From an uncultured Gammaproteobacteria bacterium (GTDB lineage: Bacteria; Patescibacteriota; Patescibacteriia; Magasanikbacterales; UBA922), in NCBI GenBank assembly GCA_964566225.1, contig CAZMHV010000002.1, positions 81,934-145,933 on the forward strand: a stretch of 64,000 nt of DNA. The letters are read 5' to 3'. Every line of letters begins with the position of its first letter. The first letter of the stretch is position 1. A model generated the notes under the pieces. That model had not been told where the DNA came from and did no database searches. It saw nothing but the letters and a program-made list of their open reading frames with translations. The translations under genes and the position numbers were made by a program. Positions 7,672 to 58,600 of this stretch are shown here, piece after piece.

Positions 7672-8862
7672 ATGAACTTGTACGAATTTGAAGGAAAAAA
7701 TATTTTTGAAAAATATGGAATAAAAATTCCACGTGGTGTGGTGGTGCGCCGCGATGATAATTTTATTGCCAAATATAGTGAACTTGGACTCACTGATGTT
7801 GTTGTGAAAGCACAAGTTCTTTCTGGAAAGCGTGGCAAGGGCGGGGGAATTAAGTTTGCTTCATCAGACGAAGAAGTACAAAAGGCCTGTGCTGAAATTT
7901 TTGCCATGGAAATTCGAGGGCAGTATGTGGCGGCTATTCGTATTGAAGAAAAATTATCAATTGCGGAAGAACACTATCTTTCTATTACGTACGATACAAA
8001 TCGTAAACAGCCAGTTTTGATTTACAGTCGTGATGGGGGAATGGATATTGAAGATGTCCCTGAAGAAAAAATTGTAAAACAAAATTTGGATATTCAAAAA
8101 GAAATGATTGAAAGTGAAATTCCTTTTGCACAAAATTTGTGGAATTGTTTTTTGAAAGAAGATACACGGGTGGTGGAAATTAATCCACTCGTGAAAACAA
8201 CTTCGGGTGAGTGGATCGCCGCAGATGCCAAAATTGCGATCGATGATGATGCATTTTACAGGCATGAAGACTGGAAAGCTTTGGAGCCTCGTACTATGAT
8301 GGGACGACTCCCAACTGATCGTGAAAATGATGCCAAAAAAATTGATGAAGGGGAAGCGTATTATCGTGGAACCGCAGGAAAATATATTGAAATGGATGGC
8401 AATATCGCTATTCTCTTTTCTGGTGGTGGTGCGAGTATTGCCAATATGGATGCCCTCATGAAAGCCGGTCTTACCCCTGCCAATTACACAGAATATTCAG
8501 GAAATCCTCCTCGTGAAAAAGTCCATGCACTTGCCAAGGTGGTTCTGAGTAAACCAGGTCTTCAGGGCCTGTGGATTGCCGGAGGTGTGGCAAATTTTAC
8601 CAATGTATCAGAAACCTTTCATGGAATTGTTGATGCACTTGATGAATTGAAACCAACCTATCCAATTGTGGTGCGACGTGCAGGACCATTTGAAAAAGAG
8701 GGAATGGAATTGATGAAAGAATGTGCAAAAAGAAATAATTTACACATGAAATTTTTTGGGAAAGAAACGTCAATGAGTGATACTGCTGAAATTTTGGCAA
8801 AAGCAGTAAAAGAAAGTATTCCTTTTGAACAATCCGATGAATGGCCTATTTATTGGCCATAA
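7672..8862 (+). CDS. sucC: succinyl-CoA synthetase beta-subunit-like ATP-grasp protein (alternatively AclB / citryl-CoA synthetase large subunit)
   Basis: MNLYEFEGKNIFEKYGI N-terminus; ATP-grasp plus CoA-ligase domain; 396 aa. Confidence 0.75.
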   Translation: MNLYEFEGKNIFEKYGIKIPRGVVVRRDDNFIAKYSELGLTDVVVKAQVLSGKRGKGGGIKFASSDEEVQKACAEIFAMEIRGQYVAAIRIEEKLSIAEEHYLSITYDTNRKQPVLIYSRDGGMDIEDVPEEKIVKQNLDIQKEMIESEIPFAQNLWNCFLKEDTRVVEINPLVKTTSGEWIAADAKIAIDDDAFYRHEDWKALEPRTMMGRLPTDRENDAKKIDEGEAYYRGTAGKYIEMDGNIAILFSGGGASIANMDALMKAGLTPANYTEYSGNPPREKVHALAKVVLSKPGLQGLWIAGGVANFTNVSETFHGIVDALDELKPTYPIVVRRAGPFEKEGMELMKECAKRNNLHMKFFGKETSMSDTAEILAKAVKESIPFEQSDEWPIYWP

Positions 8863-8880
8863 TTGTAATAAATTTGTTGT

Positions 8881-9396
8881 ATGAAAAAATATTTTCTTAT
8901 TCTTTTGTTTTTTGTGGGAGTGACACTGAGTATATTTTTTGGTGTTCGTTTTCAAAAAGAAAATGCTGTTACACGCGTAGAAAATCAAGAACTCTTTGAA
9001 CAAATTTTGATGAATCCTTTTGCCGGAGGAGTAAGTGATATTCAAGGATTTAAAAACCAAAAAGGAAAGTCTGATACATATTTTAAATTTCGTGTTACGA
9101 ATGAACAAAAAGAAGTATTGTTGAAGCTGCATGAATATAAAAAAATCGACTGTACCAATGAAGCCGTGTTGTCAAAGTTGCTTGCACCAGAAAAAACAAA
9201 AAACATTGTAGAAGGATCAACTTCTTTTTGGAATGTAAGTGAAGTTGAAAATAAAGTTTGTTATGCAACTTTTTTGTTCACTGCATCTGGAATTGAAGGA
9301 AGGTTGTATTCAAATAATTTGAGACAACGCGCACAAAGTGAGATGGTAATTGACGAAAAAAATAACGTGGTGTATTTTCATGAATCAGGAATATAA
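8881..9396 (+). CDS. hypothetical membrane-anchored protein
   Basis: N-terminal TM helix; no recognisable motif; sits between the sucC-like and sucD-like genes. Confidence 0.4.
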   Translation: MKKYFLILLFFVGVTLSIFFGVRFQKENAVTRVENQELFEQILMNPFAGGVSDIQGFKNQKGKSDTYFKFRVTNEQKEVLLKLHEYKKIDCTNEAVLSKLLAPEKTKNIVEGSTSFWNVSEVENKVCYATFLFTASGIEGRLYSNNLRQRAQSEMVIDEKNNVVYFHESGI

Positions 9397-9405
9397 AAAT
9401 TTTGT

Positions 9406-10302
9406 ATGTCTATTTTGCTCCAACCCAATACACAAGTACTTATCCAGGGGATGACTGGTAAAGAAGGTCAAAAAGCAGCGAAAGCTATGCTGGATTATGG
9501 CACACAAGTAGTATGTGGTGTCACTCCCAATAAAGGTGGACAAGAAGTCGAAGGAAGGCCTATTTTTAACTCTGTGGGTGAGGCAAAAGCTCAATTTCCA
9601 GAATTATCTGTGTCTGCCGTATATGTGCCTCCCTTTGCTGCCAAGGCTGCAATTTTGGAAGCCATTGAAAATGATATAAAACTTATCAATATTATTGTTG
9701 AGCGGATTCCTATCCAAGATACGGCGTACTGTTTGGCGGCGGCACGTGAACGTGGTGTACAAATTTTAGGACCAAGTTCACTTGGGTTTATGATTCCGGG
9801 GGTAGGCCGCATTGGTGTCGTCGGTGGACCACTTGAATTGGCCAATCAAGTATTTCAATCTGGGAGCATTGGTGTCATTTCTCGCTCTGGTGGCATGACC
9901 AATGAAATTTCTTGGCAAATTCGCAAAGCAGGCATGGGCCAAAGTGCTGCCGTGCATGTGGGAGGGGACTTACTCATGGGAACCACTTATGCAGATTTAC
10001 TTCGTTTATTTGAAAAAGATGATGCCACGAAAGGTGTTGTGCTTTTTGGTGAACATGGGGGAAGTTATGAATTTGAAATTGTAGAAGCGATTCAAAAGAA
10101 AGAATATACGAAGCCACTTGCGATTTATATTGGTGGCAAGTTTGCCAACTCTTTGCCCGAGGGTATGAATATTGGTCATGCTGGAGCGATTGTGGAGCGG
10201 GGCAAGGGTGCTGCAGAAAAAGAGAAGGCGCTCAGTGATGTTGGTGTTATGATTGCAGAGCGATATGAAGATTTAGTTACTTTAATTCAACCCTTTGCTT
10301 AA
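9406..10302 (+). CDS. sucD: succinyl-CoA synthetase alpha-subunit-like CoA-binding protein
   Basis: CoA-binding Rossmann N-terminus (LIQGMTGKEGQ) and a His-loop region. Confidence 0.75.
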   Translation: MSILLQPNTQVLIQGMTGKEGQKAAKAMLDYGTQVVCGVTPNKGGQEVEGRPIFNSVGEAKAQFPELSVSAVYVPPFAAKAAILEAIENDIKLINIIVERIPIQDTAYCLAAARERGVQILGPSSLGFMIPGVGRIGVVGGPLELANQVFQSGSIGVISRSGGMTNEISWQIRKAGMGQSAAVHVGGDLLMGTTYADLLRLFEKDDATKGVVLFGEHGGSYEFEIVEAIQKKEYTKPLAIYIGGKFANSLPEGMNIGHAGAIVERGKGAAEKEKALSDVGVMIAERYEDLVTLIQPFA

Positions 10303-11041
10303 TTGTATGCATTTTAAAACCGCAATCACTCACATCACTGATGATGGAAAGGAAATTATTCGTGGAAATAATTTTGATGAGCTCATTGAACACAAAACAT
10401 TTTCAGAAGTAATTTTTTTATTGCTGATGGGAAAACTACCGAATGAAAAAGAATTGAACATGATAAATGCATTTTTGGTTGCAGCCATTGATCATGGTCC
10501 TGGCACTGCTTCTGCGCTCACGGCTCGCATATCTGCATCGAGTAAAAATAGCATGCATACTTCACTCGCTGCAGGCCTTCTCGGGTTGGGTGAACGTCAT
10601 GGACTTGCCATCGAAGGAGCCATGAAATTTTTTCAAGAAAATATTGGTGCAGCTGATCTTGCATCACTCCTCAAACAAATGAAAGAACAAAAAAAGTATG
10701 CACCTGGATTTGGACACAGAATTTTATCGGTTGATAATCGAGCAAATACATTACTCGATATTGCCAAGAAAAATAATTTTTTTGGAAAACACTGTGAGTT
10801 TGCTCTGCAGGTACGTGACGAACTCAACAAAATTTCTTCAAAACCACTTCCCATAAATATTGATGGGGCTATGGGGGCGATTTTGTGCGACATGGGTGTG
10901 GATTCACGTTTGTCCAAGGGGATCTTTATGATTTCTCGTGTGCCAGGCTTGGTGGCACAAATTTACGAAGAAATGTGTAGTGACGAGGGACTCAGACGAC
11001 TCGAAAGTGATGAGATTGAATATATCGGTAAAGGACTGTAA
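10295..11041 (+). CDS. citrate synthase-like domain protein (citryl-CoA lyase / ATP-citrate-lyase C-terminal-domain-like)
   Basis: GFGHRIL (the GFGHRVY counterpart), LGERHG, and NIDGAMGAIL…SRVPGLVAQ match the catalytic C-terminal half of citrate synthase. Confidence 0.65.
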   Translation: MLNCMHFKTAITHITDDGKEIIRGNNFDELIEHKTFSEVIFLLLMGKLPNEKELNMINAFLVAAIDHGPGTASALTARISASSKNSMHTSLAAGLLGLGERHGLAIEGAMKFFQENIGAADLASLLKQMKEQKKYAPGFGHRILSVDNRANTLLDIAKKNNFFGKHCEFALQVRDELNKISSKPLPINIDGAMGAILCDMGVDSRLSKGIFMISRVPGLVAQIYEEMCSDEGLRRLESDEIEYIGKGL

Positions 11042-11715: not shown

Positions 11716-12963
11716 ATGAACCAAAAACCATTTGAAGTCATGTCTCCCGCAGGGTCATGGGAAACGCTCAATGCTGCCATCAAAGGTGGCGCTGATTCAG
11801 TGTACTTTGGCATTGAACAGCTCAACATGCGTGCTCGCGCAGCCAACAATTTTAAAATTTCTGAACTTGGTGAAATTGTACGTCACTGTAGTGATCACAA
11901 TGTCAAAACGTATCTTACTCTCAACACCATTTTATATGATCACGATATTCCTCTCATGAAAAAAATTTGTGACGAGGCCAAAAAGGCTGGTGTGACCGCA
12001 GCGATTACCTGTGATCTCGCTGGAATTATGTATGCGCATTCGATTGGTCTTGAAGTACATATTTCTACACAGCAAAATATTAGTAACATTGAACAAGTAA
12101 AATTTTTTGCACAGTATGCAGATGTTGTGGTGCTCGCGCGTGAACTCACACTCAAACAAATTCAGTATATTTGTGACGAAATTAAAAAACAAGACATTCG
12201 CGGACCAAAAGGAAATTTGGTAGAAGTAGAAATTTTTGTACATGGTGCTTTGTGTGTTGCCATCTCGGGTAAATGTCACATGAGTTTAGCCACACAAAAT
12301 GCCTCGGCCAATCGTGGTGCCTGCATTCAAAATTGTCGTCGTGCATATCGTGTGATTGACGAAGAAACCGGTGATGAACTCGTGCTTGAAAATAAATATG
12401 TCATGTCTCCAAAAGATTTGTGTACGGTTGGATTTCTGGATCAACTCTTGAAAGCGGGAGTGCGAGTACTCAAAATTGAAGGCCGGGGCAAATCTGCTGA
12501 TTATGTGTATACCGTTACAAAAGTATACAAAGAAGCAGGAGAGGCAGTTTTGAACGGAACTTTTACCAAAGAAAAAGTAGATGAATGGATGACACTTTTG
12601 GGCACGGTGCACAACCGTGGTTTTTGGGAAGGTGGATATTATCTTGGCAAAAAACTTGGTGAATGGAGTGGAAATTATGGTTCACAAGCCACCAAAGAAA
12701 AAATTTGTATTGGTGTTGGTCAAGGATATTTTGAAAAAACAAAAATTGGAGAGTTCCGCATGGACAGTGGCGAACTCAAACGTGGTGATGAAATTTGGAT
12801 TACGGGCAAGACTACAGGAATTATTCAAACCACAGTCAAAGACTTGTATGTTGATGGTGTTCCAGCAGAAAAAGCCATGAAGGGAGACATTATCACCATG
12901 CCAATTGATGAAAAAATTCGTAAGAGTGATAAATTATTTTTAGTGGTATCAAAACATGCCTAA
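11716..12963 (+). CDS. peptidase U32 family protein (collagenase-like)
   Basis: EIFVHGALCVAISGKCHMS U32 signature. Confidence 0.85.
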   Translation: MNQKPFEVMSPAGSWETLNAAIKGGADSVYFGIEQLNMRARAANNFKISELGEIVRHCSDHNVKTYLTLNTILYDHDIPLMKKICDEAKKAGVTAAITCDLAGIMYAHSIGLEVHISTQQNISNIEQVKFFAQYADVVVLARELTLKQIQYICDEIKKQDIRGPKGNLVEVEIFVHGALCVAISGKCHMSLATQNASANRGACIQNCRRAYRVIDEETGDELVLENKYVMSPKDLCTVGFLDQLLKAGVRVLKIEGRGKSADYVYTVTKVYKEAGEAVLNGTFTKEKVDEWMTLLGTVHNRGFWEGGYYLGKKLGEWSGNYGSQATKEKICIGVGQGYFEKTKIGEFRMDSGELKRGDEIWITGKTTGIIQTTVKDLYVDGVPAEKAMKGDIITMPIDEKIRKSDKLFLVVSKHA

Positions 12964-15270: not shown

Positions 15271-15723
15271 TTGTTTGTAAAAAATAAATTTGTAAGATAT
15301 GATGATAAAAAATATATTTTTATGAGTGAATACAAAAGAAAAATTCATAATGACATTGAAAATTCCACACAAAAAGAAATTGCACGACTGGAACAATGTA
15401 TTATTGCATCAAACAATTCTGGACTTTGGATTGAAATGAAAATTATTGATCCAAAAAATCAAGAAAATTTTTTTCGAGAGATTTTTTCGTTCAAAAGAAA
15501 AAGGTTGATATCTATTGCAACTGAGAGTTTAAAATTTTTTCAGGATGAAAATTTAAGAAGAGAATCCTCTGACGTGGTTTTGTATATTTGTCCAAACTTT
15601 GGTGATACAACATTATTTCCTATACAAAAACAACCCATTTCATTATTGGCACGATTACTGCTTACCTGTAAGGAAGTCAAAATTGTTCGTAATAGTGATA
15701 TAAAAAACAAAAATACGCCTTGA
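15271..15723 (+). CDS. hypothetical protein
   Basis: ORF only; AT-rich and Lys-rich; no motif. Confidence 0.3.
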   Translation: MFVKNKFVRYDDKKYIFMSEYKRKIHNDIENSTQKEIARLEQCIIASNNSGLWIEMKIIDPKNQENFFREIFSFKRKRLISIATESLKFFQDENLRRESSDVVLYICPNFGDTTLFPIQKQPISLLARLLLTCKEVKIVRNSDIKNKNTP

Positions 15724-15738
15724 AGCGTAATATATATG

Positions 15739-15810
15739 TCCTCTCGGGCGGAATCGAACCGTCATCGTAGGTTCCGGAAACCTATGTTCTATCCATTGAA
15801 CTACGAGAGG
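15739..15810 (-). tRNA. tRNA-Arg (anticodon CCG)
   Basis: Reverse complement folds as a cloverleaf: acceptor CCTCTCG/CGAGAGG, D-stem GTTC/GAAC, anticodon loop TTCCGGA, T-loop TTCGATT. Confidence 0.8.
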
Positions 15811-16549: not shown

Positions 16550-16558
16550 AAAAAATTG

Positions 16559-16631
16559 TGCGCCCAGATGGCTTCGAACCATCGACCCCAACGTTATAAG
16601 CGTTATGCTCTAACCCCTGAGCTATGGGCGC
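16559..16631 (-). tRNA. tRNA-Ile (anticodon UAU)
   Basis: Reverse complement GCGCCCATAGCTCAGGGGTTAGAGCATAACGCTTATAACGTTGGGGTCGATGGTTCGAAGCCATCTGGGCGCA: 7-bp acceptor, D-loop with GG, anticodon loop CTTATAA, T-loop TTCGAAG. Confidence 0.75.
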
Positions 16632-16736
16632 ATAGAAGGCTTGCTTCTTCAAAACAGAAGAATTATACCAGAAGCCCCTTGATTTTTCAAGGCTTTTGCG
16701 CTATACTTGGCTTTATACTCAAATATAAGCCATTCC

Positions 16737-17708
16737 ATGAAAAATATTGACCAAGAACTGATAATTTCACCCGAAGACGTGGGTAAGCGCATTGATGCGC
16801 TCCTGGCGCAGATTTTGGGTATCAGCCGTGTTCAAACCGCTATACTTATTGAAAAAGCACGTGTGAAAATGGGTGATCGTGTCATTCGTAAATCATCAGA
16901 AAGACTCAAAGCTGGGCAAAATCTCGTTTTACTCGCTCCAGAACAAGACGAAGTTGAAACCGCCCACATTGTCCAAAAGGTGGTTTTCCCAGAAATTGAA
17001 ATTCTCAAGGAAACCGATGACTATATTGTCTTCAATAAACCCTCTGGCCTTTTGGTACATGAAACCGAAGCACATGAACCGGTAACTCTTGCGGCCTGGC
17101 TTCTTCATCACTATCCACAAATGCAGGGGATTGGTGAAAATCCAACTCGTCCTGGTATTGTGCATCGTCTTGATAAAGACGCTTCAGGTGTGCTTGTGGT
17201 AGCCAAAACTCAGGCTATGTTTGATGCTCTCAAGGCACAGTTTAAAGAACGTACTATTGAAAAAGAATATCGTGTCTTGGTACAAGGTGTGGTAGAAAAA
17301 GATGAAGGGAAAATTGACTTCGCCATTGATCGTGGAAGCGATGGTAGAATGGTTGCTCGACCACGTACTGAAAAGGTCTCTTTGAAAAATGTTGCCAAAC
17401 TTCAAGAAGGCAAAGAAGCCCTGACTGAATTTACCGTATTGCAGCGATTTATCAATTATACAATGCTGGCTGTTCGCATTCATACTGGCCGTACTCACCA
17501 AATTCGTGTGCACATGTTTGCCTACAATCATCCAGTGGTAGGGGACACTTTATATTTTCAAAAAAAGCTTGAAAAATTTAACAAAGGCATTGGTCGGCTT
17601 TTTCTGCATTCTTACCGAATCGGCTTTACGAATCTGACAGGAGAAAAAGTCGAAGTTATTGCACCACTCCCAGAGAAACTTGAAGAATTTTTGAAAAAAA
17701 TTAAGTAA
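16737..17708 (+). CDS. RluD/RluC-type pseudouridine synthase with N-terminal S4 domain
   Basis: S4-like N-terminus and HRLDKDASGVLVVAKT catalytic motif. Confidence 0.8.
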   Translation: MKNIDQELIISPEDVGKRIDALLAQILGISRVQTAILIEKARVKMGDRVIRKSSERLKAGQNLVLLAPEQDEVETAHIVQKVVFPEIEILKETDDYIVFNKPSGLLVHETEAHEPVTLAAWLLHHYPQMQGIGENPTRPGIVHRLDKDASGVLVVAKTQAMFDALKAQFKERTIEKEYRVLVQGVVEKDEGKIDFAIDRGSDGRMVARPRTEKVSLKNVAKLQEGKEALTEFTVLQRFINYTMLAVRIHTGRTHQIRVHMFAYNHPVVGDTLYFQKKLEKFNKGIGRLFLHSYRIGFTNLTGEKVEVIAPLPEKLEEFLKKIK

Positions 17709-38207: not shown

Positions 38208-38240
38208 CAAAAACAGTCCAGAGTATGGACTGTTTTTGTT
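38208..38240. terminator. bidirectional hairpin terminator
   Basis: acagtcc-agagtat-ggactgt flanked by an A-run on one side and a T-run on the other; serves the island gene (+) and rnpB (-). Confidence 0.7.
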
Positions 38241-38660
38241 TGTCTTTTCTTGCTATAAGCCGAATTTTGTGTCCCTTGCGGGCGACGATCATTTCTCTTG
38301 ATCACACATTGCTGGGTGATTCTAGCGAGCGAACTTTTCGCATTTCTCCGCTTCGGTGCGCTGGCTAACAAGTGTTCGCCAAGCGTAACGAAGTGAAGTC
38401 GCGCTGCTCTTTCTCCAAGTAGGGCTTACCACGATTGCACATTTCTGTGCAACGAGTAGAGTAGCCTTGCGACTTCTCTACACTTTTCACCTTTCACCAC
38501 CTTGCGGTGGCTAGTATTGTCTCTGTGGTGCTATCCCGCTCACAAACTTCACAGTTTGGAGGGTGGGCGTTACCCACTACTTTTTTTCCCGGCTTGCACC
38601 AGGGGAGTTCGGACTTTCCTCATTCTGGCAAGCCAGAAAGCGATCATCTACAAGAAAAGA
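38241..38660 (-). ncRNA. rnpB: RNase P RNA (bacterial type A-like)
   Basis: Minus strand shows GAGGAAAGUCCGAACUCC (P4 5' strand), GGGUAACGCCC, ACAGAGACAA, GGUGAAAGGUGAAAAG and ACAAAAUUCGGCUUAU (P4 3' strand, compensatory with the 5' strand). The ends form P1: UCUUUUCUUG / CAAGAAAAGA. Confidence 0.8.
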
Positions 38661-38799: not shown

Positions 38800-40218
38800 A
38801 TGAAACGATTTGAAATCTTTTTCATGGTTTTTCAAGTACCACTTGATATCCTCATGCTTTTGTTTGCAGGAGTTTCTGGATACTTGCTTCGTTTTTCAGG
38901 TTGGGCGGTCGCGCTCAAGCCAGTTGCCTTTGGTCTTACTTTTTCAGAGTACATCTCTCTTGTTTTGTTTGTTATTCCGGTGTGGCTTGTCACATTTTCT
39001 TTGCTTGGACTCTATACACCAGATGTGAACAGAAAGTTTGTAGCAGAGGTTACAAAAATTTTTTTGGCATCGCTCGCAAGTTTGTCCGTAATTGCTCTTT
39101 ACATTTTGTTTACTCAGCAACTTTTTGATTCTCGATTTTTGGTATTGGCCAGTTTTTCTTTTGCTTGTCTTTATATTTCTCTTGGTAGAATGTTTATGCG
39201 TGGACTGCGTGTACTTTTTTACCGTTCAGGTATTGGACGTCGCCGGGTCGTACTTATTGGAGAAGGTGAAATTGCCGATTCTATTGAAAATATTTTAACC
39301 AGTCGTTCAGCACTTGGGTATGAAGTCATTGAACGAGTAAAGCATTTTTCTGACTCCCTAAAAAATAAAATTAGCAGACAAAAACCCGATGAAATTATTT
39401 TTGCAAACCCTCGTTCACATGAACAAGAAACACTGCAAGCCATTGACTTTGCCAATGAAAAACACATTGTATTCAAATATTCAGCTGATTTATTTTCAAC
39501 CTATTCTACCAATGTAAACATGTATCCACTTGGTGGAATTCCTATTATTGAACTCAAACGAACACCACTTGATGGGTGGGGAAGAGTTGTCAAACGAGTG
39601 TTTGATATTGTGGTTGGACTCATAATGATTGTTGTTTTGAGTCCAATTATGATACTTGCTGCCCTGCTTATTTTTATTGAAACTGGGAGTCCTATTATTT
39701 ATAAAAATGAACGAGTGGGACTTCGTGGACAAAAATTTTTTACGCTTAAATTTCGTTCCATGTATCAAAAAGATTCCACAGGAAGTCAGTTTGGTGAAAA
39801 TGGAAAAAAAGCGCAGCAAAAAGAAAAACAACTTATCAAAAAGCAAAGTATCAAAGCTGGACCTATTTATAAAATTGCCAATGATCCTCGTGTGACACCT
39901 TTTGGCAGTTTTATTCGTCGTTTCAGTATTGATGAAATGCCACAATTTTTCAATGTCATTGTCGGTGACATGAGTATTGTTGGCCCACGTCCACACCAAC
40001 CACGAGAAGTAGCTCGTTACGAAAAAGAACACAAAAAAGTATTTACTCTCAAACCTGGTATTACTGGTTTGGCACAAATTTCTGGACGATCAGACTTGAG
40101 TTTTGAAGAAGAACATCGGCTCGATGTTTTCTATATTGAAAAATGGACTCTCCTTCTCGATATCGTCATTTTTCTCAAAACTCCATTTGTCCTTTTTAAA
40201 AAACGAAAGGCATTATAA
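38800..40218 (+). CDS. polyprenyl-phosphate sugar phosphotransferase (WbaP/bacterial sugar transferase family)
   Basis: N-terminal TM helices and conserved C-terminal catalytic domain (…PGITGLAQISGRSDLSFEEEHRLDVFYIEKWTLLLD…). Confidence 0.85.
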   Translation: MKRFEIFFMVFQVPLDILMLLFAGVSGYLLRFSGWAVALKPVAFGLTFSEYISLVLFVIPVWLVTFSLLGLYTPDVNRKFVAEVTKIFLASLASLSVIALYILFTQQLFDSRFLVLASFSFACLYISLGRMFMRGLRVLFYRSGIGRRRVVLIGEGEIADSIENILTSRSALGYEVIERVKHFSDSLKNKISRQKPDEIIFANPRSHEQETLQAIDFANEKHIVFKYSADLFSTYSTNVNMYPLGGIPIIELKRTPLDGWGRVVKRVFDIVVGLIMIVVLSPIMILAALLIFIETGSPIIYKNERVGLRGQKFFTLKFRSMYQKDSTGSQFGENGKKAQQKEKQLIKKQSIKAGPIYKIANDPRVTPFGSFIRRFSIDEMPQFFNVIVGDMSIVGPRPHQPREVARYEKEHKKVFTLKPGITGLAQISGRSDLSFEEEHRLDVFYIEKWTLLLDIVIFLKTPFVLFKKRKAL

Positions 40219-40283
40219 AAAATAAAATACAAAAAAGTGAAAACACCTTGCAGAAAATATTTGAGTTGATGACCTAGTGAAGT

Positions 40284-41396
40284 ATGAAGATTGCACTTGT
40301 CCATGATTATCTTGCTCAAGACGGGGGAGCAGAAAGAGTTTTAAAAGCGTTTCATGAAATCTGGCCCGAAGCGCCAATTTTTGTTTTATTTCACCAAAAG
40401 GGGAGTGTTGCTGGTTTTGATACCGCAACCATACACGAGTCATTTTTTCGTTTTTTACCATTTGGTCGAACTCACTACCAGTGGTATTTACCATGGATGC
40501 CCTTGGCTACCGAACGTCATAATTTGCATGAATTTGATGTGGTACTTTCTTCTACCAGTGCTTTTGCCAAAGGTGTGCTTACTCGTCCGAACACTTTGCA
40601 TATTTCGTATTGTCATACACCCACCCGATACTTGTGGACGGATACGCATGAATATATTGCAGAGCTTCGATATAATGGTCTTATAAAATCGTTGTTACCT
40701 CCTGTATTACACCGCTTGCGTATTTGGGATAAGGCAAGTGTTGACAGAGTCGATCACTTTATTGCCAACTCCAAAACAGTAGGCAAACGTATTTCCAAAT
40801 ACTATCGTGCACCCAGTGATGTTATCTATCCACCGGTAGATACTCATAATTTTTTTGTGAGTGAAACAGTTGAAGATTATTTTTTGACTGGTGGACGTAT
40901 TGTTCCATACAAACGATTTGATCTTGTGATTGAAGTTTTCAACCGTTTAGGTAAGCCTCTCAAAATTTTTGGCACAGGTCCAGATTTGGATCGACTTCAA
41001 AAACATGCGAAGCCAAATATTGAGTTTTTGGGCAGAGTGAGTGATGAACAAAAAGCATCTCTTATGAGTAAAGCTCAGGCATTTGTTCATCCTCAAATAG
41101 AAGATTTGGGTATAACTCCCCTCGAATCTATGGCCTCAGGTCGTCCAGTGATTGCTTACGGTGTTGGTGGCGTAACCGAAACTGTCGTGCCTCACAAAAC
41201 AGGTATTTTTTTTCAACATCAAACCTGGGAGTCATTGCTGGAGGCTATTTTGGATTTTGACAAAACCAAGTGGGATACCCATGCTATTCGTGAACATTCA
41301 ATCTTGTTTAGTGCTTCTACTTTTAAAAAAAGAATTCGTGATTATGTTGAAAGTAGGTATGATGAATTTAACGAAACAATGGACTATTTGAACTGA
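40284..41396 (+). CDS. glycosyltransferase family 4
   Basis: GT4 fold; E…GITPLESMASGRPVIA motif. Confidence 0.8.
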   Translation: MKIALVHDYLAQDGGAERVLKAFHEIWPEAPIFVLFHQKGSVAGFDTATIHESFFRFLPFGRTHYQWYLPWMPLATERHNLHEFDVVLSSTSAFAKGVLTRPNTLHISYCHTPTRYLWTDTHEYIAELRYNGLIKSLLPPVLHRLRIWDKASVDRVDHFIANSKTVGKRISKYYRAPSDVIYPPVDTHNFFVSETVEDYFLTGGRIVPYKRFDLVIEVFNRLGKPLKIFGTGPDLDRLQKHAKPNIEFLGRVSDEQKASLMSKAQAFVHPQIEDLGITPLESMASGRPVIAYGVGGVTETVVPHKTGIFFQHQTWESLLEAILDFDKTKWDTHAIREHSILFSASTFKKRIRDYVESRYDEFNETMDYLN

Positions 41397-41478
41397 TATT
41401 GGGAACATTTCTCAAACTCTAAAAAATTATTTATAAAGAAATTGAGCACGTTTAATTTTTTTGCTCAGTCACTTACTT

Positions 41479-42648
41479 ATGAATATTGGCATTGATATCA
41501 ATCCACTTCTCACTTCACCCCGGACGGGAGTTGGTGAATATACCTTTGAACTGCTCAATGCTTTGTTTACCCTTGATAAAAAAAATCAATATTTTCTTTT
41601 TTCCAACTCATTTTCCAAAAAACACGACGACCAAATTTGGAGTCAAAAAAATGTTCACTGTATTCATACTCGTGTCCCAAATAAAATTTTTCATCTGGTG
41701 ATGCAACTTACCAAACGACCCTACATCGATGAGCTTTTGGTAAAACAATATGAAAAAAAGAATAAAATAAAAATTGGTCACCTGGATGTGTTTTTTTCTC
41801 CTAATATTGGTTTTTCTTCACTTTCCAAAAAATGTAAAAAAATTCTTACGGTGCATGATGTTTCATTTGAATTATTTCCTAAGTGTTTTTCTTTCAAAAT
41901 GCGTCTGTGGCATAAAATTTTAGATCCCAAAAAACAGTGTGAACAAGCACAGAATATCTTTGTCCCATCAGAGAATACCAAACAAGATCTCATGCTCTTG
42001 TATAATATTTCTCCAGAAAAAATTTCTGTGAGTCCGCTTGGTCTCAGTTCGTGTTTTGCCTCGGTTGATGTTTTTGATCCTGAACACTTACGTCTGGTGA
42101 AAGACAAATACCATCTCCCGAGCAAGTATATTTTCTTTTTAGGCACGGTAGAACCACGTAAAAATATTTTATTTTTACTCCAGGCTTTTGCTTTATTTCA
42201 AAAACAATTTCCGGTACAAGCAAGTGAATATACCTTGGTTATCGCAGGTAACAATGGTTGGAAATACAAACCAATACAAAAGAGTATTGCAGCGACTCCA
42301 CAGGTTCAATATATTGGATATGTAGAAGAACGTGATAAACCTCTTTTGTATCACGGTGCCAGCATGTTTGTGTATCCAAGTTTGTACGAAGGATTTGGAC
42401 TCCCAGTACTCGAAGCTATGGCCAGTGGTGTACCCGTTATTACGAGCAATCGTTCCTCGCTTCCTGAAATAACAAGTGGGGCTGCGTATTTGATTGATCC
42501 ACGCAATATTCAAACTCTCGTAACCGCTTTTGTACGGCTCAGCGATTCTGAGTCGCTAAGGCATGCGCATGTATCCAAAGGACTCAACGAAGCACAAAAA
42601 TTTTCGTGGCAAAAATCAGCAGAACAGTTTTTGAAAAATATTTATTAA
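41479..42648 (+). CDS. glycosyltransferase family 4
   Basis: EGFGLPVLEAMASGVPVITS. Confidence 0.8.
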   Translation: MNIGIDINPLLTSPRTGVGEYTFELLNALFTLDKKNQYFLFSNSFSKKHDDQIWSQKNVHCIHTRVPNKIFHLVMQLTKRPYIDELLVKQYEKKNKIKIGHLDVFFSPNIGFSSLSKKCKKILTVHDVSFELFPKCFSFKMRLWHKILDPKKQCEQAQNIFVPSENTKQDLMLLYNISPEKISVSPLGLSSCFASVDVFDPEHLRLVKDKYHLPSKYIFFLGTVEPRKNILFLLQAFALFQKQFPVQASEYTLVIAGNNGWKYKPIQKSIAATPQVQYIGYVEERDKPLLYHGASMFVYPSLYEGFGLPVLEAMASGVPVITSNRSSLPEITSGAAYLIDPRNIQTLVTAFVRLSDSESLRHAHVSKGLNEAQKFSWQKSAEQFLKNIY

Positions 42649-42654
42649 AATACT

Positions 42655-43779
42655 ATGCGTATTGGTATTGACGCACGCATGATGGGTAAAGGATTTGGAC
42701 TGGCTCGGTACACCGAGCAACTTATTGTGCATTCTTTACAAGTTGATACGGTCAACGAATTTGTTTTGTTTTTACGCAAAGAAAATTGGGATCAGATTCC
42801 AGATACCACACCTCGAGTCAAAAAAGTACTTGCAGATATTCCCTGGTATAGCCTACAAGAACAGTTGCAACTGATTGGCATTATCAAAAAAGAAAAGGTC
42901 GATCTCATGCATTTTCCACATTGGAATATTCCATATTTTTATCGCCAGCCGTATGTGGTCACCATTCATGATCTTATCATGTTTCACTTTCCACGGGCAC
43001 AGGCTACCACACTTGGGCCTGTGAAATTTTGGGTCAAAGATATGGCGCATCGGCTGCTTTTGCGTACAATATCCAAAAGTGCCAAACATATTTTTGCTAC
43101 GAGTGAATTTACCAAGAGTGATATCCACGCAACATTACATGTGCCTTTAGAAAAAATGACGGTCACGTATCAGGCACCGTTTGAGGTCATTCAAAACATG
43201 GACGACATAAACCATGAATCCCTTCTCGCCAAATATAATATTACCAAGCCATATATACTCTATGTTGGTGCAGCCTATCCACACAAAAATCTCAGAGGTC
43301 TGATTGATGCATGGAAATTGTATGAACAAAAATATGGTTCAACCCATCAGTTGGTGTTGGTTGGTAAAGAAAATTATTTTTATTCGGAAATAAAAAAGTA
43401 TCAGCAAGCAGTGGCACCAGAGAGTCATGTTTTGTTTACAGGTTTTGTTCCTGACGAAGAACTTTCGGTACTGTATGAACATGCTTCTTTGTACGTATTT
43501 CCGAGTCTCTACGAAGGTTTTGGTCTTCCTCCCCTGGAAGCCATGGTACATGGCGTACCAGTTGTCTCATCAAATCAGAGTTGTCTTCCTGAAGTCCTGG
43601 GCAATGCAGCACTGTATTTTGATCCCCAAAACAGAGATGAGATGGTTGAAAAAATTCACTCTGGTCTCACCGATATATTACTTCAAGAAAATTTGAAAAT
43701 ACATTCAAAAAAAATTCTGCAAAAATACTCCTGGGAAACACTTGCCAGACAGACGATAAATGTCTACCTCTGCCCTTGA
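42655..43779 (+). CDS. glycosyltransferase family 4
   Basis: EGFGLPPLEAMVHGVPVVSS. Confidence 0.8.
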   Translation: MRIGIDARMMGKGFGLARYTEQLIVHSLQVDTVNEFVLFLRKENWDQIPDTTPRVKKVLADIPWYSLQEQLQLIGIIKKEKVDLMHFPHWNIPYFYRQPYVVTIHDLIMFHFPRAQATTLGPVKFWVKDMAHRLLLRTISKSAKHIFATSEFTKSDIHATLHVPLEKMTVTYQAPFEVIQNMDDINHESLLAKYNITKPYILYVGAAYPHKNLRGLIDAWKLYEQKYGSTHQLVLVGKENYFYSEIKKYQQAVAPESHVLFTGFVPDEELSVLYEHASLYVFPSLYEGFGLPPLEAMVHGVPVVSSNQSCLPEVLGNAALYFDPQNRDEMVEKIHSGLTDILLQENLKIHSKKILQKYSWETLARQTINVYLCP

Positions 43780-52084: not shown

Positions 52085-53023
52085 ATGCATATACTTCCTC
52101 TCCTCAAAAAAATATTTTCAGAAAAAAAATATTGGCAGGTCAAAAGTCTTGTACTTCGATTTTTTTCGTTTTTGTGTATTTTTTTTCTTGTTGATTTTAC
52201 CCATGAAACCTATACTCAAAAATATTTTGGGTATGCGGTACGCACCAGTGACGGATTTATCAATTATTTGCCATATCTTTTTTTGGGTGCATTTTTTGTA
52301 CTGAGGCTTCCATCATTTTTTACTGGCCCCCAAAATAATCATACCAAAATTTTATCATCTGTATATACATATCTCGCTCTGTTCTTTTTTTTGATGCCGG
52401 TTCCAAGGAGTATTTTTGAGTCAAATCTCTCACTTATTTTTGTTCAGTCAATTTTCATGCTTTTGGGCTATATAAGTTTATTTGTAGCCATACTCGGAAA
52501 GAATTTTATAAAAAAATTTTCTGTAGACCTTTCCGTTATTATACTTCTTATTATTCCGTCACATTTGGCTCCACTCCTCATCGATCACTTTTGGCAGTAT
52601 TCATCACGGGTTACGTTAGCAGGTCTTTCACTTTTATTTTCACTTTTGCATATTGATGGAGTTATTATACCAAGTGAATTTGCTGTTCGTATGAAAGACT
52701 TTTCTGTGATTGTCGGTCCTTCGTGTGCAGGTATTCATTCCCTCACAGCTTTTACCGTATTGTACGGTGCCATACTACTTCTTGCCTCCAAAGATGTCGC
52801 TTTCAAGGGATATTATGCTGCTTTGTTTTATGCCATTGGTCTTTTTGCTGTATTTTTGCTCAATAGTATTCGTGTTTTCTTGATTATTTTGGTGGGAGTT
52901 TATTATTCCAAAGATTTTGCTATCCACTTGTTCCATGAGACTATTGGTTCAGTGCTCCTTCTCAGTTTTTTCATTTTGTATACTTCTTTTATTCTTCCCA
53001 AAATTCTGAGAAGAGCATCTTGA
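52085..53023 (+). CDS. exosortase/archaeosortase-family transmembrane protein (EpsH-like)
   Basis: Polytopic; VIVGPSCAGIHSL matches the exosortase catalytic Cys region (C-x-G…); a conserved Arg region follows. Confidence 0.5.
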   Translation: MHILPLLKKIFSEKKYWQVKSLVLRFFSFLCIFFLVDFTHETYTQKYFGYAVRTSDGFINYLPYLFLGAFFVLRLPSFFTGPQNNHTKILSSVYTYLALFFFLMPVPRSIFESNLSLIFVQSIFMLLGYISLFVAILGKNFIKKFSVDLSVIILLIIPSHLAPLLIDHFWQYSSRVTLAGLSLLFSLLHIDGVIIPSEFAVRMKDFSVIVGPSCAGIHSLTAFTVLYGAILLLASKDVAFKGYYAALFYAIGLFAVFLLNSIRVFLIILVGVYYSKDFAIHLFHETIGSVLLLSFFILYTSFILPKILRRAS

Positions 53024-54211: not shown

Positions 54212-54823
54212 ATGCAACATATTTTTTTGGAAGACTGCAATCTTGAAGTACTCGTTGACCTATTGACACAAGGCAAGACTTTGGTGTATCCAACCGAAAC
54301 CTGCTATGGCCTCGGCTGTGACCCCTCAAATTCACTCGCAGTAGAAAAAATTTTTCATATCAAAAAACGGCCAGAAAATAAACCTATGCTCTTGGTGTTT
54401 CCAAATATTGAAATGCTCAAAAAGTATATTGTTTGGGATACGACACTTGAAAAACTTTCAAGCTACTGGCCAGGACCGTTGACTGTAGTCGCACAAGTCT
54501 TAGCAGGAGCACCTCTCGCTCCTGCATTGACACAAATAAATCATACGGTAGCCGTACGGGTTTCTTCGTATCCATTTGTAGCAGAACTCACGGCTCTGTT
54601 TGGTGGTCCTCTTGTATCAACCTCAGCAAATATTGCAGGTGAACCAAATCCTTATACAGCCACAGAAATTGTTGACCGATTCAACAAAGAAAAAATTTTT
54701 CCTGATATCATTATTGATGCAGGAACACTGCCTCCCAACCCACCAAGTACGCTTATTCAAGTTGACCATGGCACGGTTACGGTTCTTCGTCAGGGAAGTA
54801 TTCAGGTTATCCACCCCATATAA
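54212..54823 (+). CDS. tsaC: L-threonylcarbamoyladenylate synthase (YrdC/TsaC)
   Basis: LVYPTETCYGLGCD…; YrdC domain only (~200 aa). Confidence 0.85.
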   Translation: MQHIFLEDCNLEVLVDLLTQGKTLVYPTETCYGLGCDPSNSLAVEKIFHIKKRPENKPMLLVFPNIEMLKKYIVWDTTLEKLSSYWPGPLTVVAQVLAGAPLAPALTQINHTVAVRVSSYPFVAELTALFGGPLVSTSANIAGEPNPYTATEIVDRFNKEKIFPDIIIDAGTLPPNPPSTLIQVDHGTVTVLRQGSIQVIHPI

Positions 54824-54894: not shown

Positions 54895-55614
54895 ATGGAT
54901 GGAATGGATACGAACAATAAATTGACTCGTGAACAAAAAGTGGGCGTCACGCTACTTTTTATTTTTACCTTACTCACCGTTGGTCTTGCTTTTTTGCAAA
55001 TGCGTAACACTTTGTTTACGCCTTTTGTGTTAAACCCAACTGATGTTGTGGATACCCAAAAATCACTTCAAGATTTGCAGGTTGACCTCCAAAAAATCGA
55101 TACAGACAAAGACGGACTCAATGACTTTGAAGAACAAGAATACTATGCTACCAGTCGATACCTGCCAGATACGGACTCTGATGGTGTTTCTGATAAAGTC
55201 GAAATTGATGCGGGTACCAATCCGTTATGTGTTGAAGGAAAATTTTGTGAATTTGGCCAAGCCAATCCTCAAGCAGTCTCTACTACTCAAGCCATTACAG
55301 CGCTTCCTGTAGGGAGTACAGCCCTTTCACCAGTTGCTGGGATTGCCCAAGATCAAGAAACTGCAGCAGCTCAGTTGCAGGCACTCATCAATGATCCAGA
55401 ACAAATTCGTCAAATGCTTCGTCAAACTGGTTCTATCCCCGAAGAACAGCTCAAAAAACTTGATAATGCAACACTTATTAGTTTGTTGAAGCAAATCATC
55501 TCTCAGCAAGGTCAGCCTCAAACCCCACCTGTCCCCGATGCTTCTGGAGTCTCTACTTCTACCAAAAATTCTGTTACAACAACTTCAACTTCTCAATTTG
55601 AAACAGAACCCTAA
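54895..55614 (+). CDS. hypothetical membrane-anchored protein with Asp-rich Ca-binding-like repeats
   Basis: N-terminal TM; DTDKDGLNDFEE…DTDSDGVSDKVE (thrombospondin-type-3/EF-like Asp motifs); Gln/Pro-rich C-terminus. Confidence 0.45.
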   Translation: MDGMDTNNKLTREQKVGVTLLFIFTLLTVGLAFLQMRNTLFTPFVLNPTDVVDTQKSLQDLQVDLQKIDTDKDGLNDFEEQEYYATSRYLPDTDSDGVSDKVEIDAGTNPLCVEGKFCEFGQANPQAVSTTQAITALPVGSTALSPVAGIAQDQETAAAQLQALINDPEQIRQMLRQTGSIPEEQLKKLDNATLISLLKQIISQQGQPQTPPVPDASGVSTSTKNSVTTTSTSQFETEP

Positions 55615-55622
55615 TTTTTTCT

Positions 55623-58600
55623 ATGCTAGAGTTTTTTTCACCCAAAAGGAAATTTGTCAAAGTCACTCTGTTTGTCGTTGGCATGCTTCAAGTTTTTAGT
55701 TTTCTTTTGGTCGCTCCGGTTTTTGCACAAGCGGGTCAGCCTGTATCTGACTATACGACAGAGTTAAATACCTATGTTACAGCCAATGTTTTGCTTGCTG
55801 ATAAGGCCAAAAAAGAAGTTGACCAAGGACTTTTGGCTACTGGAGTTGCCTCTATCATCCATGCTTTTTCCTATTTCATGGACAAAATCGCCTATGACAC
55901 TGCTCAGTACGTAGCCAATGGTGGCAAAGGCCAAAGTGCTTTGGTATTTAGAAAGGGTTTCAAGAGCTATATTGAAGACACGGCTCTTGATGCTGCCGGA
56001 GATTTTATTGAAAATTTTAGTACCAATGCACTCGGTATTAACCTCTGTCAAATTCCAGATCCACACCTGGCTATATTTTTGACACTTGGTTTCAAGAGTA
56101 TTTATGGCAAAGGTGGTCCTCAATCAAGTTGTTCTTGGCAACAATTTCGTAATAACTGGAGTCGAGAAGCGTTTGAACAACGCTATGGCCCAGGTGGAAG
56201 TCGTTTTTTGGCAGAAACTTTTAGTGCAAATTTAAAAGTAAGTAATACTGACTTCGGTGTAGGGTTATCTGCTATTGCCAAGCTTGACAAAGTTACGGCT
56301 CAAGCCAAAACCGCTGCTGCTGATGACCGCAAAGAAGGACAGGGGTACAAAGCGGTAACGGCTATGATTACGGGAAATATTTTGACTCCATCACAGGTTG
56401 TCCAAAAAGAAACTGATGTTGCTACCAATCATTACAAAGTTGAAGCCAATAACCAGCAGCTGGCGGGTATTTTGGCCAGTGGTGCCAATCAAGTTTTTTG
56501 GCATGCAGGTTCTGTATTTTTGAATACACTGACTTCAGAGATGATCAATAAATTGCTCACCCAAGGAATGTTTCCTGATATTGGAGACGATGGGAGTGCG
56601 GTAGAGGGTGGCTTTTATAACAGTCCACAAAATCGTTTGAATGGTGCAGCAAATCCCTATGCTCAGTTGCTTACGGCTCGACCTTCTACTCAAGTCAATA
56701 ATTATAATATCATTTCAGAGTTTGCTACCTGTCCAGACGCTCCAGGTATGAACAATTGTGTCATCGATACCGACTTCCAAAGAGCGCTCGACATTGGTAA
56801 CAGTGATAAACCACTTACTATCCAAGAGGCACTTGATAAAGGTTTGCTCCACGGCAATTGGCCTCTTATTTCTCCTAAACGTGAAGCTGACAATGCCAGT
56901 CCAAATCATGATTGTTACCAGGGAAAATATTGCTATTCCAATATCCAAAAACTTCGTAAAGTAAATATCTTGCCACTTGGTTTTGAAATTGCCGCTCTTC
57001 GTTCTGATCCAGATCAACCTTGGACACTTGAAACGGTCGTGAGAAACTTTGAAACCTGTTATCGTGTCAATGGACAAGGAAATCCTGATCCAAATGGTAC
57101 TATTATTCGAGAAAATGCTGCGTTTCCATTTTGTCATCTTATTAATCCAAACTGGATTATTCGTGTACCAGCGCTCCAATGTATGGGCAAGGTGATTACC
57201 GATTCACTGCTTAGTCCCGATTCTGCGCAGCGTCGTGAAGAATGTCTTGATGTCAAAACATGTATTAACGAAGGTGAAAATGGAAGTTGTGGTGGTACTT
57301 ACGCGTACTGTACTCAAGAAAAAAATATTTGGAGAATTCCAGGACAATCTTGTCCTGCTGAGTATAATACCTGTACCACGTACATGAACAATTCTACCCG
57401 CCAGGCAGCTTCATATTTGGCGCGTACGGTTGACTACGGTGAATGTAGTATTGATACAGTAGGGTGTCGTGCGTATGCTATCCAAAAATACGGTGCGGGT
57501 AACTGGCTTGGTTCCGGTGATGTTGATGATAGTGACAACCACAAAACATTTCGTGCTCTTCATGACACCACAGATATTATATACTTTGACAATGCTATAA
57601 AAGCACAAAGTACGGTTTGTCGTCCTGGCAATAATGGATGTACATTATTTTATGGTGCAGTCCAAGATACCACTACCGGTCAGTACCAAAAAACATCAAA
57701 CAACAAATTTATTGAAGACAAAAATGTTCAAATTCATCTCAAAAAAGCTCCCGATTATTTGAAATGTTATGATAGTAATCAGGCAAGTCCAGATATTGAT
57801 TGGCCAACTACTTTGGCTGACGTAGAAACCAATGTTTCTCAAAGCGAACAGTGTAATGCTTTTGCTTCAGTATGTTTAGAAAGTGAAATTGGTTGTGAGG
57901 CTTATACTCCGCTTGATGCCAAACAAGTGGCTCTTGCGGGTGTACCTCAAATTCCAGGTATGATTGGGGCACAAAATGTATGTAGTAGTGATTGTGTGGG
58001 ATATGCTACTTTCAAACAAGAAGCTGATAAATTTTCCAATGAAAAATTTCCATTGTATTTTATTCCTCAAAATGGCAAGAGTTGTGATGCCAAGTACACT
58101 GGCTGTTCAGAATTTACCAATATTGATACACGTGCTCAAGGTGGAGAAAAGAAAGAGTATTATACAGATCTCAAATACTGTGAAAAACCTTTGGCAGACC
58201 AAAGTAATATAAAAACATTCTATACTTGGGAAGGCAGTATCAACCAAGGTCTTTCTCTCAAAACTGTCAAAATATTACCAGTGAGTGCTGAAGAAAATAC
58301 ATATTTAAATGCAGTTCTTGCAGACGAAGATGCCAAATACATTGATCAATTTCCTGTTGGTTCACCTGCGTATGGAGATGATAGTAAAATTGCACTTATG
58401 GGTGCGGTTACCCAATGTAACAAAGAAAACTATTTGATTCGTCAAAACAATCCATACGATGTTGATGCTGCGGTACCAGATTGTAAAGCATACTATGACG
58501 ACGCTGGAAATATTTTTTACAGAGTCTCAGGAGATGACTCCAAATCTCTCAATAAATTAGTAACTATTTCACCGGCATGTCATCCTTTGCGCAAAACCAA

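Follow-up and report, generated by a model that had tools for sequence, protein, structure and literature searches.

Bacteria must read AUA without reading AUG as well, a classic decoding problem to which lysidine, the product of the essential enzyme TilS, is the solution in nearly all of them. The locus described here raises the question of how this codon is read in a bacterium that encodes a tRNA-Ile with the anticodon UAU. The gene lies in a 64,000-nucleotide stretch of DNA that was analysed as a whole (the window). Our analysis indicates that it is probably a functional chromosomal tRNA-Ile, with its UAU anticodon encoded in the genome, that decodes AUA in a member of Patescibacteria near Magasanikbacteria.

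ARAGORN retrieved the gene as a tRNA-Ile with anticodon tat on the minus strand (16558-16631), one of three tRNAs in the window. The Rfam model RF00005 aligned with it over its full length, from 16631 to 16559, with 65.2 bits (E 6.6e-12; gathering score 29) and zero non-canonical pairs flagged. Both searches agree with the initial annotation, which had described a clean cloverleaf with a UAU anticodon and A37; its coordinates are exact, and the strand, which it had left unstated, is minus. The gene is 73 nt long (minus-strand sequence GCGCCCAUAGCUCAGGGGUUAGAGCAUAACGCUUAUAACGUUGGGGUCGAUGGUUCGAAGCCAUCUGGGCGCA). Its anticodon loop reads CUUAUAA (C32 U33 U34 A35 U36 A37 A38), the discriminator base is A73, and the stem pairs include C4:G69, C5:G68 and U12:A23. 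CCA is not encoded (3' flank CAAUUUUUUAUG), nor is it in most of the 15 copies of this gene described below. The bare sequence does not have the cloverleaf as its minimum-energy fold. In unmodified tRNA sequences the cloverleaf often differs from the minimum-energy fold, and we discounted the discrepancy because covariation supports the cloverleaf. The gene and its neighbours are listed in Table 1, with a t6A-pathway gene that lies elsewhere in the window.

Table 1. The tRNA-Ile(UAU) gene and associated features, in window positions.
Feature	Position	Strand	Evidence
tRNA-Ile gene, anticodon UAU	16559..16631	minus	ARAGORN; Rfam; conservation and covariation in 14 related loci
Sigma-70-type promoter-like site, TTGAAA-17 nt-TATAAT, extended -10 TG	16662..16690	minus	Consensus match 11/12
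HD-superfamily hydrolase ORF, 255 aa	15782..16549	minus	Pfam HD-CE 1.6e-5, HD 3.5e-4
tRNA-Arg(CCG)	15739..15810	minus	ARAGORN; Rfam 61.4 bits
Terminator-like hairpin and T-run	15714..15729	minus	6-pair stem, then TTTTTGTTTT; consensus match only
RluA-family pseudouridine synthase, RluD-like	16737..17708	plus	TIGR00005 223 bits (cut-off 192.7)
TsaC/Sua5-family protein, t6A37 pathway	54212..54823	plus	Pfam Sua5_yciO_yrdC, 6.3e-47

In the window, the RluD-like gene is the divergent neighbour of tRNA-Ile(UAU), and it was the anchor for locus comparison. Its product was used as the query of a synteny search against one genome per GTDB species, a collection that holds no close species representative of the host. 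The nearest relatives of the protein were encoded in 12 metagenome-assembled genomes (MAGs) labelled Candidatus Magasanikbacteria, Patescibacteria group or, in several cases, uncultured Gammaproteobacteria, with 45-58% identity. tRNA-Ile(UAU) was found at the same spot in 11 of these 12, where at most about 600 nt separate it from the RluD-like gene downstream. In the remaining relative, L009, a contig of 6 kb, the tRNA is missing at the syntenic spot and the part with RluD and tRNA-Arg(CCG) is present. A profile-based RluD scan of metagenome contigs retrieved three more tRNA-Ile(UAU) loci (L139, L140 and L154), L154 being a more distant contig with 42% RluD identity, while about 75 other RluD loci of that scan (33-40% identity) carried no such tRNA. 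With the window, the 14 related loci make a set of 15 sequences. Identical copies of window genes were confined to two short Logan contigs (runs SRR16481186 and SRR16481187), and exact-protein matching lengthened the window on its left side by about 1.5 kb. Judging from these comparisons, the host is a Patescibacteria (CPR) bacterium near Candidatus Magasanikbacteria, because its nearest RluD relatives carry those labels and share the locus.

Five of the related MAGs are titled 'uncultured Gammaproteobacteria bacterium': L004 (CAYHTX01), L005 (CAZHUL01), L006 (CAYYQC01), L009 (CAZQHU01) and L014 (CAZFKS01). All but L009 have a Magasanikbacteria-type RluD/tRNA-Ile(UAU) locus, and RluD in this set of five is 45-58% identical to that of the window. 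The 'Gammaproteobacteria' labels of all five look wrong.

The CUUAUAA loop is invariant in the 15 sequences, as are A73, G1, G3:C70, C4:G69, U8, A14, G18-G19, U12:A23 and the T-loop positions. The window and its 14 relatives all encode T34; C34, the substrate of TilS, occurs in none of them. Pairing was counted in 12 of the 15 sequences (11 of them distinct), in which 99.6% of cells showed standard pairing and 12 of the 21 stem pairs showed compensatory changes on both sides. The observed covariation was reached by none of 500 shuffles, and pairing fell to 25-43% when the partner columns were slid. The orientation of the gene is less constant. tRNA-Ile(UAU) lies directly upstream of the RluD-like gene and on the same strand in five loci (L003, L004, L005, L010 and L154) and is divergent from it in the other 10, the window included. 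Since both orientations occur at one position, at least one inversion of the short tRNA segment must have taken place.

The promoter-like site ends about 30 nt upstream of the 5' end of tRNA-Ile(UAU). It is a consensus match only, one of four such sites in the region against 3.6 expected from shuffles. On the other side, the HD-hydrolase ORF opens with an ATG 9 nt past the 3' end of the tRNA. Its HD-CE and HD matches both fall just below the gathering scores, and it has a weak PDB match to 2pq7, a 'predicted HD superfamily hydrolase'. Homologues of this ORF adjoin tRNA-Ile(UAU) in L003, L005 and L011; in the other relatives, tRNA-Ile and tRNA-Arg are separated by 15-174 nt. tRNA-Arg(CCG) is the usual neighbour, being found near tRNA-Ile and on the same strand in L006, L007, L008, L011, L013 and L014. 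Directly 3' of the window's tRNA-Arg(CCG) is the terminator-like hairpin, which likely marks the end of the transcription unit. On the simplest reading, tRNA-Ile(UAU), the HD ORF and tRNA-Arg(CCG) appear to be carried on a single transcript. The tRNA would then probably be expressed from its own promoter, in one unit that runs through the HD-hydrolase ORF and tRNA-Arg(CCG) to the terminator. RNase P and 3' processing would free it, and the CCA-adding enzyme would complete its 3' end.

The HD-hydrolase ORF has no stop of its own, as its last nine codons and a TAG fall inside the tRNA-Arg(CCG) gene (15782-15810, minus). RNase P cleavage of a co-transcript would therefore leave a non-stop mRNA.

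At 89 aligned AUA positions in nine window genes and their orthologues in the relatives, the residues were I (46%), V (17%) and L (13%), and M was not among the seven commonest. This profile is like that of AUU and AUC, whereas AUG positions differ, with 46% M. AUA thus reads, in this alignment, as an isoleucine sense codon of this organism, because the relatives show I, V or L and not M at its positions. The codon makes up 98 of the 868 Ile codons in 31 window genes (11.3%), or 8.4 per 1000, which falls in the 'medium' class of PMC12514573. GroEL, S2, EF-Ts, L19 and GAPDH each contain it once or not at all. All sampled relatives use AUA, at 1.3-38 per 1000, roughly following their G+C content. 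The initial annotation had called AUA codons frequent in an AT-rich genome. The first part was overstated, AUA being a minor codon, and the window is only moderately AT-rich, with a G+C content of 37-48% in 4-kb blocks and of about 40% as a whole. The window also encodes a TsaC/Sua5-family protein, which would fit t6A at A37 of this ANN-reading tRNA.

Several features speak for isoleucine identity. The identity set of E. coli IleRS, as reportedly established by Nureki et al. in 1994, includes A73, A35-U36, A37, A38, C4:G69, U12:A23 and C29:G41. All of these except C29:G41 are present and invariant in the 15 tRNA-Ile(UAU) sequences, and position 29:41 is A:U or G:C. IleRS would be expected to charge this tRNA with isoleucine. 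Direct alignment to E. coli tRNAs (ileV, ileX and metT) gave 73% identity to tRNA-Ile1(GAU), 67.5% to tRNA-Ile2(CAU) and 66% to tRNA-Met. An origin from tRNA-Ile1(GAU), as in a Bacillus subtilis suppressor discussed below, is possible, although the three values are too close to settle the ancestry. With blastn against E. coli genomes, the tRNA had four weak matches, all to tRNA-Val and tRNA-Asn genes.

The acceptor stem is closer to the lysidine-bearing tRNA in one respect: C4:G69 and C5:G68 resemble tRNA-Ile2. In E. coli, A73, C4:G69 and C5:G68 are the TilS determinants of tRNA-Ile2 (PMC12514573). The canonical tRNA-Ile2(CAU) with lysidine thus shares these three elements with tRNA-Ile(UAU) and serves the same codon, AUA. 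Unlike it, all 15 sequences have T34 and not C34, so TilS finds no cytidine to act on. In the mechanism that we favour, tRNA-Ile(UAU) would pair with AUA without lysidine on itself: direct pairing of U34 with A would read the minor codon, and lysidine would be unneeded on this tRNA.

The mechanism, though rare in bacteria, is already known; what is new is the host lineage and the apparently clade-wide distribution. The closest experimental case is tRNA-Ile2(UAU) of Mycoplasma mobile, a species in which tilS and tRNA-Ile(CAT) were lost, U34 is unmodified, IleRS carries Arg865 and the ribosome rejects AUG (Taniguchi et al. 2013, PMC3575796). Both cases combine a UAU anticodon encoded in the genome, AUA reading without lysidine, a small genome and A37 in the loop; they differ in that the lineages are unrelated (Tenericutes and Patescibacteria) and in that the properties listed for M. 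mobile were established by experiment. A suppressor of tilS deletion in B. subtilis is likewise a U34 tRNA-Ile, although a laboratory mutant: its tRNA1-Ile, changed from G34 to U34, bound AUA strongly and AUG weakly (PMC3919564). The precedents of M. mobile (PMC3575796) and of B. subtilis without tilS (PMC3919564) show that a tRNA-Ile with unmodified U34 is workable in bacteria, with AUG bound only weakly. Nine species without tilS, in three clades, carry tRNA-Ile(TAT), and 371 distinct tDNA-Ile(TAT) sequences were recorded in metagenomes as early as 2013 (PMC3575796). Other counts gave tRNA-Ile(UAU) in 19 bacterial species in tRNADB-CE (PMC4013482) and in 17 bacterial genomes in a tRNAscan-SE 2.0 survey (PMC8450103). 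In Bifidobacterium and Neorickettsia, a UAU tRNA likewise stands in for tRNA-Ile2(CAU) (PMC3575796; PMC8450103). These bacteria lack tilS and have a eukaryote-type IleRS. Among archaea, Nanoarchaeum equitans and Korarchaeum cryptofilum also replace a CAU tRNA with a modified cytidine by tRNA-Ile(UAU) (PMC8450103). They too are ultra-small or reduced organisms, but they belong to another domain of life, and the system replaced is agmatidine and TiaS, not lysidine and TilS. Among the papers that could be searched, we found none tying tRNA-Ile(UAU), lysidine or tilS to Patescibacteria/CPR, Saccharibacteria or Magasanikbacteria.

The initial annotation had linked tRNAs of this kind to loss of tilS, and we then have to consider whether the lysidine system persists alongside. 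NCBIfam and Pfam scans of 50 window ORFs detected no TilS. Nor did tblastn with E. coli TilS and scans for the PP-loop (SGGxDS), which covered the window together with the loci from genomes and metagenomes; the sole PP-loop match, in L008, is a 251-aa non-TilS ATPase. No CAU tRNA was present in the 64-kb window or in about 250 kb of related Patescibacteria loci (at most 20 kb per relative), and neither the window nor the related loci, which make up a small part of each genome, encoded an IleRS. FtsH loci, beside which tilS is often found, were absent among the loci compared. All these absences refer to a small part of the genome per species and carry little weight.

The strongest alternative is accordingly one in which tilS and tRNA-Ile2(CAU), with its lysidine, are kept elsewhere in the genome, the UAU tRNA being a second AUA reader. 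We regard this as a serious prospect, if a somewhat doubtful one. tilS is otherwise nearly universal in bacteria, and the loci compared cover a small part of each genome. Patescibacteria have small genomes with little redundancy, which we count against a second reader. The anticodon loop, moreover, is invariant over a divergence of RluD down to about 42-58% identity, as expected of a needed function, and the roughly 250 kb of related loci yielded neither a CAU tRNA nor TilS. Bacteria with both systems are documented: tilS accompanies tRNA-Ile(UAU) in Lactobacillus casei, Cyanothece PCC 7424 and Ferrimonas balearica, a 'transition state' (PMC3575796). There, however, tRNA-Ile(TAT) is sporadic and limited to species or strains, whereas here it is fixed across a deep clade.

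We favour the reading in which tRNA-Ile(UAU) does not merely assist a lysidine system. That it is fixed at a single locus in a deep clade with small genomes suggests that this tRNA is the standard reader of AUA there, probably without a second one. Whether tilS was lost in the clade is, in our judgement, evenly balanced. Only tentatively, with confidence a little short of even, do we extend this to the proposal that the whole Magasanikbacteria-like branch, and perhaps more of Patescibacteria, has dropped tilS and tRNA-Ile2(CAU) and would read AUA only through tRNA-Ile(UAU). The words 'perhaps more' are grounded in L154, which carries the tRNA at 42% RluD identity. If the proposal is true, it would add a further independent loss of the lysidine system, in the most species-rich bacterial lineage known for it. 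It would also raise the question of how a reduced CPR ribosome, or a modification of U34 (possibly by the linked RluA-family synthase), prevents AUG from being read as isoleucine. Fixation across a deep Patescibacteria clade would broaden the range of lysidine-free decoding, and a confirmed absence of tilS would mean that TilS is missing from a large environmental lineage. The 15 sequences provide comparative material on the tRNA features that accompany U34. For annotation pipelines that judge the completeness of tRNA sets, Ile-TAT and not Ile2-CAT is to be expected in these genomes.

U34 itself may be modified so that AUG reading is blocked, for instance to pseudouridine or by some other enzyme, possibly the adjacent RluA-family synthase, which would set this tRNA apart from that of M. 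mobile. The anticodon PsiAPsi of eukaryotic tRNA-Ile is a model for pseudouridine at position 34. In each of the 15 loci the synthase gene adjoins the tRNA, whether on the same strand or divergent from it, but this linkage is biased, the loci having been found with the synthase as bait. With its RluD-like, S4-plus-catalytic architecture, the protein looks like a housekeeping 23S rRNA enzyme, and U34 is unmodified in both bacterial cases studied (PMC3575796, PMC3919564). We therefore consider a modified U34 unlikely, and infer an unmodified one for tRNA-Ile(UAU).

Very improbable is an origin as an accessory tRNA of a phage or mobile element, outside the core decoding set. Viruses often carry tRNA-Ile(UAU), and a tRNA-frame pattern matched 112 viral contigs; this degenerate pattern is generic and uninformative on the lineage studied here. 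The window is ordinary chromosome (uvrA, gmk, rplS, rpsB, tsf, gap, pgk, groEL, glmS, yidC, a release factor, tsaC and RNase P RNA). The gene is flanked by housekeeping genes (the RluD-like gene, gmk, rplS, uvrA, rpsB and tsf) with no integrase nearby, its locus is syntenic in 14 others (11 of the 12 genome relatives and three metagenome relatives), and the local G+C content is unremarkable. A pseudogene or chance tRNA-like sequence, which the non-cloverleaf minimum-energy fold and the unencoded CCA might suggest, can be dismissed with near certainty because of the covariation (0 of 500 shuffles, and the loss of pairing on sliding), which contradicts pseudogene status, the more so as the Rfam score is high at 65.2 bits, all universal tRNA positions are present and most of the 15 copies likewise lack CCA.

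One further tRNA came to light in the metagenome loci. In L175 (contig Ga0172379_10002404, 19275-19348), ARAGORN detected a tRNA whose anticodon, UUA, would pair with the stop codon UAA. Seven other tRNAs share its stretch, beside a distant RluD homologue, and it could be a suppressor tRNA, or the contig could belong to a phage or a recoded lineage.

Elsewhere in the window, a U32-peptidase-family protein is encoded at 11716-12963 (+). Its best NCBIfam match, at 161 bits where the cut-off is 534, is TrhP, the tRNA U34 hydroxylase; UbiU ranks next. We found no link between this protein and the UAU tRNA. At 7672-11041 (+), a citryl-CoA lyase that exceeds its cut-off comes after beta and alpha subunits similar to succinyl-CoA ligase, neither of which reaches its equivalog cut-off. 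We read these genes as a putative citryl-CoA synthetase/lyase cluster, a surprise in a CPR bacterium. The genes at 38800-43779 and 52085-53023 (+) encode an exopolysaccharide priming glycosylphosphotransferase, three GT4-type glycosyltransferases and an exosortase-like (EpsH) membrane protein, by homology a surface polysaccharide and sorting toolkit in a lineage with small genomes. An ORF of at least 2799 codons (55602-64000, +), cut off by the window's right edge, has a hydrophobic segment at its N terminus and probably encodes one of the giant surface proteins that are common in CPR genomes. The RNase P RNA (38240-38659, -) is of the bacterial class A type (165.7 bits) and, at about 420 nt, has several long insertions that the model, with its 367 positions, lacks.
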